Shown one piece after another: positions 8,474 through 11,431 of a stretch of 28,279 bases of DNA. Position numbers and translations under genes: made by a program. The notes below the pieces were generated by a model. It was not told the origin of the DNA, ran no database searches, and worked only from the letters and a program-made list of their open reading frames with translations. This stretch comes from Jatrophihabitantaceae bacterium (lineage in GTDB: Bacteria; Actinomycetota; Actinomycetes; Mycobacteriales; Jatrophihabitantaceae), in the NCBI GenBank assembly GCA_036506855.1, contig DASXRA010000210.1:1-28279 (forward strand), in the 5' to 3' direction. Within the stretch, counting starts at the first letter, position 1; the number at the start of each line of letters is the position of its first letter.

Positions 8474-8857
8474 CTATCCCTCGCCGATGTCGTCCGCACC
8501 CGGCGGTGTCGGCACGCCGCGCCACCGTGCCTCTGCCTGCTCGTCGAGCCCGGTGAGTTCGTTCGCGACCTCGGACGGAATGCTCGGCTCGTCGCTCGGC
8601 AGCTTCTCGATGCGGCCGATGTCGAGCCACCTGCGCATCAGCCCGGCGGCGCGCTCTTCGTCGATCTCGACCGTCTCGTCCCACGACCCTTGGTACTTCT
8701 GCTTGTAGAGGATGTCGCTGTGCACCCAGTCGCCGGATCGCAGCAACATCTCGGCGCGCGCGACGCGAGCGCCGACCGGAAGGCGGATCAACCCGGCCTT
8801 GCCGTCGTCGGCCAATTCCGGGGTGTCACCGGACAGGTAGTACTGCCATCGCGTCAT
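8474..8857 (-). CDS. Putative immunity protein (127 aa) for the upstream toxin
   Basis: ATG 8857 with GAGG upstream, 10 nt after the toxin stop: MTRWQYYLSG...GLIRL...AEMLLRSGDWVHSD...VEIDEERAAGLMRRW. Small, acidic and directly downstream of the toxin. Confidence 0.65.
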   Translation of the reverse strand: MTRWQYYLSGDTPELADDGKAGLIRLPVGARVARAEMLLRSGDWVHSDILYKQKYQGSWDETVEIDEERAAGLMRRWLDIGRIEKLPSDEPSIPSEVANELTGLDEQAEARWRGVPTPPGADDIGEG

Positions 8858-8867
8858 CGATATCGCC

Positions 8868-9638
8868 TCACCAGTTGATCCCTGTCGCACCAGTTGGTTT
8901 GGTGACCATCCCGAATATGCCGTTCTGCAGGTCTTCCAGGTAGTCACGGACGACCGGATGCAGGCCCGGAAGTCGCTGGAAGTCATAGATCCCGTGCGTG
9001 CCCTCCTTGGCTTCGAGGCTTTCGACCGAGTGGAACTGCACCTCCACCATCTGCCCGGTCTCGGTATCGCGCCACACGCTGTTGATGCCCTTGTAGCCGG
9101 CCTCGTTTCCCCACGTGTTCTTCAGCTTTCCGATCGGCTCGAAACCCGCGTCCTTGAGCTTGCCGATAGCGTCCTCGCTGACTCTGGCGTAGTCGTCCCG
9201 GGATGACTTGAACGTATAGCGCACCGCGTCCTTGATGCCGCTGAGCGACTCGTCTACGGTCTTTCCGTCGCGTACGACGTCGGTGGCGACCTTGCGCCGC
9301 AGCGAGTCGGCGGACTTGAGCTTGAACTCTTTCCCCGCCAGCTCAGTGCCCGGAATGGCCTGCTCGATTCGTTCGAGCCTCGGGGTGATCAGCTTCTCGG
9401 CCTCCCCCGACCGCTTGGCGAACGCGTCGATGGCCGCATGCTCTCCGTGGCTCAACTCGCCGACGAGGTCTTTCTCCATCTGGCCGAGAATCTCCTTGGC
9501 CGACCGGGTCTCGCCCCGCTTCAGCGCATCCTTGGTGACGGCGCTCTCCGCGTCGCGCAGAGCGCTGCGCGCGGCCTTGGCGATCAAGCCGCGGGCCGCC
9601 TCCTCGCCGCCGCGAACAGCGGCGCCGCCGCCTACCAC
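8868..9638 (-). CDS. Putative polymorphic toxin with RelA/SpoT-like (small alarmone synthetase) domain; start uncertain (GTG 9638, or ATG 9688 with a frameshift)
   Basis: KLKSADSLRRK (xKxxxSxxxK), DAVRYT, GYKGIN, EVQFHS and AKEGTHGIY correspond to the synthetase motifs in order; Gly/Ala-rich N-terminus. Confidence 0.75.
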   Translation of the reverse strand: MVGGGAAVRGGEEAARGLIAKAARSALRDAESAVTKDALKRGETRSAKEILGQMEKDLVGELSHGEHAAIDAFAKRSGEAEKLITPRLERIEQAIPGTELAGKEFKLKSADSLRRKVATDVVRDGKTVDESLSGIKDAVRYTFKSSRDDYARVSEDAIGKLKDAGFEPIGKLKNTWGNEAGYKGINSVWRDTETGQMVEVQFHSVESLEAKEGTHGIYDFQRLPGLHPVVRDYLEDLQNGIFGMVTKPTGATGINW

Positions 9639-9696
9639 GGCCGCCGCCGCGGCGCCGCGTCGGTGTTCGTGCCCAGCAAGCTCTCCATCCCTTCAC

Positions 9697-10188
9697 TCAG
9701 CTCAGGATCGCCATGATGACCTCGTTGATGATCGCGTTGATGATGCGCTCGGCGATCTCCTTGAACACCGGGATCTCGGCGAGCGACGCGCCGAACGTCG
9801 GCACCGCCGTCGCGATCGCTTCGGCGATCTCGCACGCGAGGATCACGAGGTTGACGATTGTGTTGATCTTGAGGCCGAGCACCAGGCCCGCGCACGCGAA
9901 CATCGCCGCGCCGACGGCCTCGACTCCGGTCGTCGCGTCGCCGAGCACTGAGGCAGGCGAGTTGTGGCTCTGGAGCTTGTCGTGGAACGCGTTCAGCGCG
10001 TCGGCTTGGTTGTTCGCCATGAGCTTCTGCGCAGCCGTCATCGTGAGTTGATGGGACTGGCCGACCGCCGAACCGAACTGGCACCAGGACTGGCCGACCG
10101 TGAACAGATCCTGCTCGTCGACCTCGGGCCAGGTGAAGCCCAGGTCGTTGAGCAGGCGTTCTAGTTCGCCGGGCAGTGTGACGCCCAT
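9697..10188 (-). CDS. WXG100-like helical carrier domain protein (163 aa)
   Basis: ATG 10188 with GGAGG: MGVTLPGELERLLNDLGFTWPEVDEQDL...AVPTFGASLA. Resembles the N-terminal domain of actinobacterial type VII toxins but ends in its own stop. Confidence 0.7.
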   Translation of the reverse strand: MGVTLPGELERLLNDLGFTWPEVDEQDLFTVGQSWCQFGSAVGQSHQLTMTAAQKLMANNQADALNAFHDKLQSHNSPASVLGDATTGVEAVGAAMFACAGLVLGLKINTIVNLVILACEIAEAIATAVPTFGASLAEIPVFKEIAERIINAIINEVIMAILS

Positions 10189-10204
10189 ACAGGTGCCCTC
10201 CCCG

Positions 10205-10510
10205 TCACTCTGCTTTGAACAGCGTCGCGCTGTTCTCCTCGGCGTCTTGGTAGTGCTTCGCCATCGTGTGCAGCCCGTCGGAGTAGGTACCCAGAGCCTG
10301 GTGCGACGTGCCGAAGCACGAGTCGGCGACCGCAATCGCGCCCATGAGCGTCATCTGGATGAGCGGCGCGACCATGTCGGTCTGGCCGAACTTGATGCCC
10401 ATCGTCTGCGCCTTGAGCTGTTCCCATTGCTGGTGCAGGTCGTCGCCGGCCTGTACGAGCGCGTCGCCCGTGGTGTGGAAGTCGTCAGGGTTGACGAGGA
10501 AGCCGACCAT
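10205..10510 (-). CDS. WXG100-like type VII secretion substrate (101 aa)
   Basis: About 100 aa, helical, with a C-terminal YxxxE signal (HYQDAEE) and no canonical WxG. Confidence 0.7.
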   Translation of the reverse strand: MVGFLVNPDDFHTTGDALVQAGDDLHQQWEQLKAQTMGIKFGQTDMVAPLIQMTLMGAIAVADSCFGTSHQALGTYSDGLHTMAKHYQDAEENSATLFKAE

Positions 10511-10512
10511 GC

Positions 10513-10860
10513 CTACTGCGCCCGCAGTCGGGTCACCGCAGCCGTGAGCTCGCCGCTCATGCGTTTCATCTGCTCGGCGGACTGTTCCTGGATCGCTGTG
10601 AGCTCCTCGATCAGGTTCGACGTCGACGAATCTGCCGGACGGGCGTCGACGGCCTGGTTCACGGCAGCCGCGATACCGTCCGCGAGCTCGGCGGCAGGCC
10701 TGCGCAGCATCGTCGGATCGACCGAGATGGACGCGACGTCGCCGTCCGGGCCGACGATCACGGTGATCAGTCCGTCGTCGGACGTGCCGGTCGTGGAGTC
10801 GCTGGTGCGGCGCCCCGATCCGGACAATACGGCGCTCGTCCGCATGAGTAGGTCGTCCAT
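10513..10860 (-). CDS. YbaB/EbfC-family (EspL-like) protein; start uncertain (10947/10884/10860/10845)
   Basis: GTSDDGLITVIVGPDGDVASISVDPTMLRRPAAELADGIAAAVNQA matches the family core. Confidence 0.7.
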   Translation of the reverse strand: MDDLLMRTSAVLSGSGRRTSDSTTGTSDDGLITVIVGPDGDVASISVDPTMLRRPAAELADGIAAAVNQAVDARPADSSTSNLIEELTAIQEQSAEQMKRMSGELTAAVTRLRAQ

Positions 10861-10894
10861 CTCCTGAACCGGGTCGGGCCGCACGTTCGTGACT

Positions 10895-11326
10895 CTAGCG
10901 GCGAGTCGATCCAATTTCGCCGGGCTGGCCGGCCGAATTTCCGGCACGCTCCTCGCGCGCTGCCTGCACGTGCTGCTCGACCTCGGCCATGGCCTGGACG
11001 ATCAACGTGAGCTCGGTCCGGGCCTGCTCGCGCATCGCCTTGAGCGCGTCGACCACCGGGGCGAAGTCGACCTTGCCGGGACGCGCGGCGAGTGCACCGT
11101 TGATGGCTGTCTGGATCTCCGCGGTCACGTCCGCGAGCGGGCGGCGCAGGACGCTCGGGTCGATCGACAGGGACCGCACCCGACCCTCGAGGCTGACCTC
11201 GGCTGTGATCAATCCGTCCGCGGCGGAACCCAGGTACGGGCCTGCGGCCGCCTGCGTTGAGTCGGGAAGCCTTCCAGCAAGTGCCGCCCGCGCCTGCGTC
11301 ACGAGAGCGTCGACCGACGAATCCAT
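10895..11326 (-). CDS. YbaB/EbfC-family (EspL-like) protein
   Basis: GSAADGLITAEVSLEGRVRSLSIDPSVLRRPLADVTAEIQTAINGA; paralogous to the next gene. TAAGGT lies 8 nt before the ATG. Confidence 0.72.
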   Translation of the reverse strand: MDSSVDALVTQARAALAGRLPDSTQAAAGPYLGSAADGLITAEVSLEGRVRSLSIDPSVLRRPLADVTAEIQTAINGALAARPGKVDFAPVVDALKAMREQARTELTLIVQAMAEVEQHVQAAREERAGNSAGQPGEIGSTRR

Positions 11327-11407: not shown

Positions 11408-11431
11408 CGATCGCGCCTTCCGGCGCGATCG
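11408..11431 (-). terminator. Stem-loop after pafA, probable intrinsic terminator
   Basis: Perfect 10-bp stem cgatcgcgcc-ttcc-ggcgcgatcg, 7 nt past the pafA stop; U-tract weak. Confidence 0.6.

Follow-up and report, generated by a model that had tools for sequence, protein, structure and literature searches.

How would a toxin that carries no targeting domain of its own be exported by a secretion system of type VII (T7SS)? The question is raised by six genes in a 28,279-nucleotide stretch (the window) of contig DASXRA010000210.1, part of a metagenome-assembled genome (MAG; 80% complete, 543 contigs) of a Jatrophihabitantaceae bacterium. From position 11326 to 8474, six co-oriented minus-strand open reading frames (ORFs) with intergenic gaps of 2 to 58 nt encode two YbaB/EbfC-like proteins, a 101-aa helical protein with a YxxxE motif, a 163-aa protein with a WXG100_2 domain (the carrier), a toxin, and a 127-aa acidic protein (pI 4.53; 25 acidic versus 15 basic residues). 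An earlier reading of the letters alone (the original prediction) had listed these six tightly spaced genes and had taken them for an interbacterial alarmone-synthetase toxin exported by a T7SS encoded elsewhere in the genome, with the last gene conferring immunity. What it had observed was confirmed, and its interpretation as a whole is supported. The answer that we consider probable is split carrier-plus-cargo export by a T7SSa: a separately encoded toxin of the exported alarmone synthetase (EAS) type would leave the cell together with its carrier, kill by runaway 3'-pyrophosphorylation of purine nucleotides, and be neutralized by the acidic protein.

The toxin gene runs from GTG 9638 to 8868 on the minus strand and encodes 256 aa. 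All of the strings that the original prediction had quoted (KLKSADSLRRK, DAVRYT, GYKGIN, EVQFHS, and AKEGTH) lie in this protein, but the span given for it (8868 to 9400) was too short. A single-sequence search matched residues 62 to 253 to SaEAS of Streptomyces albidoflavus (PDB 8VX3, labeled 'SaSAS' there) with ~38% identity (E = 2.3e-35), and a profile of 16 toxin homologues matched the same structure at E = 2.2e-67. The AlphaFold2 (AF2) model of the toxin (pLDDT 92.8; pTM 0.87) retrieved 8VX3 in Foldseek with a TM score of 0.83 to 0.85 (E = 1e-15), followed by RelP, RelQ, and the N-terminal domain of Rel (E = 5e-5 to 1e-3). The predicted fold is that of a nucleotidyltransferase, and the original prediction, which had staked itself on such a fold, therefore stands on this point.

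All catalytic motifs are kept: KxKxxxSxxRK at the ATP site, the catalytic Asp, GYxGxN, ExQxH, and HxxY. Among the 16 homologues, K108, S112, R115, K116, D137, R140, Y141, G181, Y182, G184, and N186 are invariant; E199, Q201, H203, H215, and Y218 are conserved in at least 90%; and K106, also part of the ATP-site motif, is either invariant or conserved in at least 90%. Toxin residue D137 aligns to SaEAS D121; the D121A substitution inactivates SaEAS, and the crystallized protein was the D121A variant (PMC12691689). The toxin also matched the NCBIfam model of the XopAD/skwp type III effector C-terminus (E = 4e-23), and XopAD/skwp-type proteins are counted among EAS (PMC12691689). Together, the alignments and the structural model support placing the toxin among RelA/SpoT-type SYNTH nucleotidyltransferases of the EAS clade. 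Such a SYNTH domain would pyrophosphorylate guanine and/or adenine nucleotides on the 3'-OH, with ATP as donor and at a very high rate, so that ATP and GTP pools would be drained and (p)ppGpp and/or (p)ppApp would flood the cell. Which of the two is the product is not callable from the sequence; SaEAS makes both alarmone types, whereas VpEAS and AaEAS, the latter being the one T7SS-linked EAS tested, make only (p)ppGpp (PMC12691689).

Structural matches to the toxin also included FaRel2, and a small synthetase followed by a small neutralizing protein is a toxSAS-like arrangement. Both would be expected if the last two genes formed a toxSAS pair (FaRel, CapRel, or PhRel type) working inside the cell, as a toxin-antitoxin or abortive-infection module, and happened to lie next to T7SS-substrate genes; such a pair would act on the cell's own nucleotides or tRNA upon phage attack or stress. 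However, FaRel2 was found at rank 23 with a TM score of 0.28 to 0.35, compared with 0.83 to 0.85 for the EAS structure. The toxin, moreover, has its first ~60 residues in common with unrelated polymorphic toxin domains and is colinear with a WXG100_2-fused toxin (see below), which is unexpected for a toxin-antitoxin module. In the 127-aa protein, neither an HD nor an SAH hydrolase domain was detected, nor any Pfam match, unlike the toxSAS antitoxin types (an SAH hydrolase, a fused domain, or a known small antitoxin). On these sequence and structure comparisons, we give an intracellular module little credence; it appears very improbable.

The order YbaB-like protein, ~101-aa protein, 163-aa WXG100_2 protein, ~255-aa toxin, and ~127-aa protein was found again in four independent metagenome or MAG loci (L018 to L021; 50 to 98% protein identity to the window cassette) and is therefore not a chance arrangement. 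One of them, L020, is from a Jatrophihabitantaceae MAG that is 98% identical, has the same synteny, and likewise places the cassette between pafA and pafBC. T7SS toxins of the LXG/WXG kind bear their targeting domain at the N-terminus of the same polypeptide. The window toxin does not: it has no PF25547, LXG, or WXG100 match, and the targeting domain is on the separate 163-aa carrier. A 409-aa relative of the two proteins, P0065, is in comparison fused. Residues 1 to 158 of the carrier share 36% identity with residues 1 to 158 of P0065, and toxin residues 62 to 254 share 38% with P0065 residues 216 to 405. Carrier and toxin (419 aa together) are colinear with P0065 and therefore stand in a Rosetta-stone relation.

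What the toxin has in place of a fused targeting domain is a constant N-terminal module. The first 59 residues of two L018 toxins, one a glutamine deamidase (PF15644) and the other an EAS, are identical, and the sequences diverge thereafter; the junction falls at residues 61 to 63, a predicted loop between helices 47 to 60 and 64 to 94. The same module is on P0016, whose C-terminal domain is of a third, unassigned type. These genes in L018 form a tandem array (L018:1056-4142) that consists of the carrier, the glutamine-deamidase toxin, a 102-aa ORF, the EAS toxin with the identical 59-aa module, and the immunity gene. Small toxins whose N-termini are similarly Gly-rich and amphipathic directly follow stand-alone carriers from the same genus and family, and the cargo domains include an ADP-ribosyltransferase (ADPrib_exo_Tox, PF03496; E = 1e-13) and Ntox30 (PF15532; E = 8e-31). 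Interchangeable C-terminal toxins with matched immunity genes on a constant trafficking part, as defines polymorphic toxins, are thus present at these loci. We propose that the ~60-aa module would dock noncovalently on the carrier and that the two would be exported jointly. A complex prediction for the carrier, the 101-aa protein, and toxin residues 1 to 70 scored 0.00 (partner pLDDT 41) and weighs neither way.

Given that a fused homologue exists and that the MAG to which the window belongs is fragmented, the split might also be read as damage, that is, a WXG100_2-EAS fusion broken by a frameshift or an assembly error, with no deliverable toxin left. The toxin's GTG start lacks a clear ribosome-binding site, and one additional base would bring an 18-codon ORF in the spacer (ATG 9688) into frame with the toxin. 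Against decay, the stop of the carrier and a separate toxin start are kept in five loci (50 to 98% protein identity) with carrier-toxin frame offsets of 0, 1, and 2; these values were computed from locus coordinates and by an automated frame assignment that was not dependable at some of the loci. In L020, despite 98% identity, the spacer has an unrelated sequence that does not allow a join of this kind, the catalytic residues of the toxin are all intact, and stand-alone proteins of ~163 aa make up ~55 of the best 150 cluster representatives of the carrier. A decayed locus is, in our view, extremely unlikely.

The toxin frame is closed upstream by a stop at 9695 to 9693, and the toxin start, (A/G)TG-GTA-GGC-GG (M-V-G-G-G), is conserved in five loci (the window, L018, L020, L021, and L022). 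Carrier and toxin are separated by 12 to 15 nt in L018, L019, and L021, by 58 nt in the window, and by 61 nt of unrelated sequence in L020. Two routes by which the toxin might be extended upstream were tried and rejected. A one-base frameshift joining the ATG 9688 ORF to the toxin is not supported, as M-V-G-G-G is kept in the five loci and the same join is impossible in L020; conserved stop-codon readthrough or a programmed frameshift fusing carrier and toxin was rejected on the frame offsets, which vary among loci. The TAG stop of the spacer ORF overlaps the toxin start as GTGGTAG (window 9632 to 9696), and the L020 spacer has a different, 15-codon ORF that ends at the same place. These spacer ORFs could permit termination-reinitiation at the toxin start without a Shine-Dalgarno sequence.

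Of the two proteins proposed to form the export handle, the carrier, predicted earlier to be WXG100-like, belongs to the PF25547 WXG100_2 family (Table 1). A library search with it returned 456 cluster representatives at E ≤ 1e-3. By a hand count from the listed lengths, the best 150 comprised ~55 stand-alone proteins (154 to 175 aa) and ~70 N-terminal domains of 230- to 1770-aa proteins. A literature search for PF25547 or WXG100_2 found no publication. Carrier residues ~85 to 130 (window 9799 to 9936) are hydrophobic, with a 19-residue Kyte-Doolittle mean of up to 1.95, and the same stretch is visible in fused PF25547 proteins; it might allow membrane insertion during delivery.

The 101-aa protein is the small helical partner with a YxxxD/E-type signal that is found upstream of T7SS toxins. 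Its HYQDAEE sequence provides Y87xxxE91, and W29, F41-G42, Y87, and E91 are invariant among six homologues. The family profile aligned over its full length with PE25 (E = 0.003), with YxxxE falling on the YATAE of PE25, whereas EsxB matched more weakly; the WXG100 model PF06013 was matched by two of six family members (best E = 5.6e-6). Its closest relatives are therefore PE/WXG100-type T7SS substrates, a refinement of the original prediction, which had called it a helical protein with YxxxE. In L018, the partner gene is seemingly frameshifted (two tblastn pieces). We propose that the 101-aa protein would supply the YxxxE export signal and would form, with the carrier, a helical export handle for EccC machinery encoded on another contig.

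Both YbaB-like proteins score above the PF02575 gathering threshold, the first narrowly (27.3 bits versus a cut-off of 25.5), which bears out how these genes were first described. They are paralogues with 37 to 38% identity, and a YbaB-like gene heads the cassette in L018 to L021. The longest ORF for the second, which gives 144 aa from GTG 10947, shares 53 nt with the upstream gene, whereas GTG 10884 lies 10 nt past the upstream stop and gives 123 aa; the latter is the likelier start because a 123-aa length is called in L018, L020, and L021. The two proteins are candidates for EspL-like chaperones or accessory factors and would assist export in that capacity. An EspG-type chaperone gene was not seen in the cassette, and no genome search for espG was made.

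The type VII machinery that had been anticipated elsewhere in the genome was located on contig C492, which encodes EccC (859 bits), EccD (243 bits), and EccB (276 bits), each above its curated cut-off, together with two WXG100 genes (an esx pair) and a weak EccE-like protein. Mycosin-like proteases were found outside C492, at 272 bits and thus just under the cut-off of 278.75. A second EccC-like gene adjoins a strong WXG100 gene on another contig (G000:C240:18105-21708), and an open frame of 536 aa whose N-terminus weakly resembles WXG100/WXG100_2 (G000:C143:2406-2693) is possibly a further T7SS substrate or fused toxin.

The 127-aa protein behaves, as judged from gene content across loci, as the cognate immunity protein of an interbacterial toxin. 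Its ATG 8857 lies 10 nt past the toxin stop, and homologues (41 to 99% identity) are downstream of every split EAS toxin in L018 to L021. More distant matches follow other EAS genes: a 93-aa ORF with weak similarity (29%; E = 2e-3) downstream of the fused P0065 (L023) and a clearer homologue (31%; E = 4e-7) downstream of the 332-aa EAS frame of Haloactinopolyspora alba (L048). By comparison, the 102-aa ORF downstream of the L018 glutamine-deamidase toxin is unrelated. An orphan copy with 73% identity (L024:10001-10384; ENA contig_17068, 440 kb) has a GNAT gene on one side and an unrelated gene on the other, with no EAS toxin, carrier, or partner within 10 kb. The immunity role proposed in the original prediction is argued from this pattern: at all loci examined the gene comes directly after the EAS toxin, it changes when the toxin domain changes, and L024 has it without a toxin.

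The AF2 model of the protein is confident (pLDDT 86). No Pfam match was detected, solved structures gave no match (best E = 0.65), AFDB clusters gave TM scores of only ~0.5 over residues 1 to 80, one to an 'Immunity protein 26' and the others to proteins without a name, and Atlas gave weak matches to unnamed actinobacterial proteins. The original prediction had named IapK for comparison; a blanket PDB fold search returned no known (p)ppApp-toxin immunity protein, although neither Tis1 nor IapK was compared directly. That search covers Tis1 only if this protein is, as we presume, a chain of PDB 6OX6. Since neither an HD nor an SAH hydrolase domain was detected, immunity most likely works by direct binding, and the protein would block the enzyme in this way in the producer and in resistant kin. 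Its C-terminus (8474 to 8515), V-P-T-P-P-G-A-D-D-I, is nearly invariant and resembles that of the toxin (8868 to 8906), K-P-T-G-A-T-G-I (family consensus P-P-G-A-x-x-I); SaEAS ends in V-P-V-P-A-G-A-D. The shared motif is accompanied by no DNA-level repeat above chance. The tail of the immunity protein may be a mimic of that of the toxin.

An exported synthetase need not be a weapon. It could make extracellular alarmones after secretion by the T7SS, with the 127-aa protein guarding the producer's cytoplasm before export. SaEAS, the closest characterized relative, is secreted, makes extracellular alarmones, and did not inhibit Bacillus subtilis in coculture (PMC12691689), and since a T7SS exports folded proteins, the producer would have to keep an internal inhibitor anyway. 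Yet Sec-type EAS genes have no immunity genes, while every split EAS toxin is followed by one. Carriers of this design are also paired with toxins that have intracellular targets (the ADP-ribosyltransferase, Ntox30, and the glutamine deamidase), and an orphan immunity gene such as that in L024 is a signature of defense against neighbors' toxins. We consider a role without antibacterial action rather unlikely, and delivery into rivals remains our preferred reading.

To find such toxins exported by a T7SS in an actinomycete would, according to the original prediction, be noteworthy. That claim has been overtaken, because T7SS-linked EAS in actinomycetes were described by Ahmad et al. (mBio, 12 Nov 2025; PMC12691689), who identified SaEAS and solved 8VX3. 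They collected EAS by jackhmmer from Apk1 and surveyed 1,369 Apk1/Tas1 homologues, 85 of them with WXG/LXG domains. They tested AaEAS of Amycolatopsis azurea, which is LXG-fused, makes (p)ppGpp, is bactericidal in Escherichia coli, and is encoded with a targeting-factor gene upstream and a small putative immunity gene downstream (PMC12691689). AaEAS and the window toxin are therefore alike in being T7SS-associated actinomycete EAS SYNTH enzymes with a targeting factor upstream and a small immunity gene downstream. They differ in that AaEAS, by its published description, is one polypeptide with an N-terminal LXG, whereas the window has a PF25547 carrier and a separate toxin with a ~60-aa module. 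Streptomyces 'cluster B' EAS have no signal peptide and lie beside T7SS and immunity genes (PMC12691689); this cluster may share the split layout.

SaEAS has the same catalytic Asp and C-terminal VPxPxGA tail as the window toxin, of which it is the closest characterized homologue, but it is Sec-secreted, unlike the T7SS export that we propose. A Sec-type relative, P0014 of Streptomyces mashuensis, is without the cassette. Tas1/Apk1-Tis1 of a type VI secretion system (T6SS) and Apk2-IapK of a MuF phage embody the same idea, a delivered RelA/SpoT-homologue synthetase that kills by runaway alarmone synthesis and is paired with cognate immunity, but their delivery by T6SS Rhs/PAAR or phage MuF is unlike the T7SS link of the window. 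Neither Tas1/Apk1 nor Apk2 was present among the 50 Foldseek PDB matches listed or among the sequence matches of the toxin.

Gene order is also similar to that of EatA-TapA1/TapA2-EatI of Mycobacterium abscessus, in which small helical partners are upstream of the toxin and immunity is downstream. Benedict et al. (Nat Commun 2026; PMC13444075) reported ESX-4-dependent interbacterial killing by this fused T7SSa toxin with its Tap partners and immunity protein, and EatA-type loci are widespread in Actinomycetota (PMC13444075). Unlike the window toxin, EatA and the toxins surveyed with it are 400- to 1000-aa fusions of a helical bundle with a toxin, and EatA is a cell-wall arabinanase with a lipoprotein as immunity. 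YbaB-like genes, two of which are in the window cassette, are unmentioned there ('YbaB' has 0 occurrences in PMC13444075). In the LXG-Lap1-Lap2 targeting complex of the Bacillota T7SSb (Klein et al., PNAS 2024), the helical N-domain of the toxin and small helical partners make up a composite export signal, according to published abstracts and PMC13444075. The window counterpart would be the 101-aa protein with the WXG100_2 carrier, although LXG-Lap belongs to the T7SSb subtype with LXG covalently joined to the toxin and the window to T7SSa with the two split. The LXG partner families, DUF3130 and DUF3958, are unrelated in sequence to the partners in the window. In PE25-PPE41 (PDB 4W4K, 4KXR, and 2G38), the full-length but weak alignment of the 101-aa protein to PE25 places its YxxxE on the PE YxxxD/E signal, and PE-PPE pairing (background in PMC13444075) is mirrored by the pairing of this protein with a larger W-x-x-F/L-G helical partner. 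The carrier, however, is a PF25547 protein and not a PPE.

Coordinates of the cassette features are collected in Table 1.

Table 1. Features of the cassette, in window coordinates
Feature	Position	Strand	Basis
YbaB/EbfC-like protein 1 (143 aa)	10895..11326	-	PF02575, E = 4.1e-6
YbaB/EbfC-like protein 2 (144 aa from GTG 10947; likelier 123 aa from GTG 10884)	10513..10947	-	PF02575, E = 3.5e-9
101-aa PE/WXG100-like helical partner with YxxxE	10205..10510	-	PE25 profile match; invariant Y87/E91
163-aa stand-alone WXG100_2 carrier (start ATG 10188)	9697..10188	-	PF25547, E = 1.1e-11
Carrier-toxin spacer (58 nt, 18-codon ORF inside)	9639..9696	-	ORF start ATG 9688
Toxin N-terminal constant module, residues 1-60 (proposed carrier-docking adaptor)	9459..9638	-	Predicted helices 5-40 and 47-60
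EAS-type RelA/SpoT SYNTH domain, toxin residues ~61-256	8868..9458	-	8VX3 match; AF2 model
127-aa acidic protein, putative cognate immunity (start ATG 8857)	8474..8857	-	Synteny

In the window, L020, and L021, pafA and pafBC flank the cassette, and in L018 it adjoins DUF3866; this neighborhood is a recurrent cassette site. The GC content of the cassette is 0.66, compared with 0.73 for the left flank. A perfect palindrome with a 10-bp stem, CGATCGCGCC-TTCC-GGCGCGATCG (window 11408 to 11431), lies in the 112 nt that separate pafA from the cassette; it may terminate pafA transcription or set the two units apart. A promoter scan found no sigma-70-like site, no DNA repeats marking the cassette borders were found above chance, and no paralogues of the six cassette genes were found in the rest of the MAG.

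Across genomes, the EAS toxin is an accessory gene. It was not found in the 12 other same-genus species genomes searched, while the carrier was found in 6 of them, and an even sample of the class (400 genomes) gave EAS matches in 6, mostly long fused frames. Fused forms in named genomes were found in Mycolicibacterium, Mycobacterium, Luedemannella, and Actinoplanes. A 163-aa open EAS frame in Mycobacteroides chelonae (L049) comprises only the C-terminal part of the domain, and the homologue in Actinocrinis puniceicyclus (L054) was matched in two pieces; both look like remnants.

Several points weigh against split T7SS export of an alarmone-synthetase toxin as set out above. The Pfam RelA_SpoT model (PF04607), the check named in the original prediction, did not match the toxin even at E ≤ 1, nor did any other Pfam family, and membership in RelA/SpoT therefore rests on the EAS clade and the structure. 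EAS sequences have diverged too far for PF04607 to recognize them, and a match to it is not a defining biochemical feature. No Shine-Dalgarno sequence is visible at GTG 9638, and the 58-nt gap before it contrasts with the 12 to 15 nt in other loci. The T7SS genes and the cassette are on different contigs of an 80%-complete MAG; their linkage is uncertain, as is the completeness of the machine, given the sub-cut-off mycosin and the weak EccE. The immunity protein is unlike any known immunity or antitoxin family, and its role is argued solely from synteny. The route by which a T7SSa toxin with a cytoplasmic target crosses the envelope of a rival is unexplained, as conceded in PMC13444075. Finally, the case for the window toxin and its split relatives is computational throughout.

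The toxin class and the T7SS export route are already known, whereas the split carrier/cargo layout is not in the published accounts compared, which describe fused toxins only. By itself, the window locus mainly extends the EAS class to an uncultured soil lineage of Jatrophihabitantaceae-like bacteria. The 127-aa family would be an uncharacterized immunity family for EAS enzymes; wild-type EAS could not be purified for want of an immunity protein for SaEAS or VpEAS (PMC12691689). Taken with its relatives, the locus presents the T7SS trafficking domain as a separate carrier on which small toxins with a short common N-module would ride. It is possible, though we rate the chance somewhat below even, that actinobacteria have 'cargo-type' T7SS effectors, in which a stand-alone WXG100_2 carrier with a PE-like YxxxE partner and YbaB-like helpers noncovalently loads interchangeable toxins of ~150 to 270 aa (EAS, ADP-ribosyltransferase, Ntox30, and glutamine deamidase among them) via a short constant N-terminal helix; the distinction between cargo and specialized effectors of the T6SS is an analogue. 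If this holds, a homology arm of ~60 codons would suffice for a toxin swap, with no recombination of the export handle ever required, searches for LXG/WXG-fused toxin domains would miss a class of T7SSa effectors, and the cassette would offer a compact system for the study of cargo recruitment to T7SSa.

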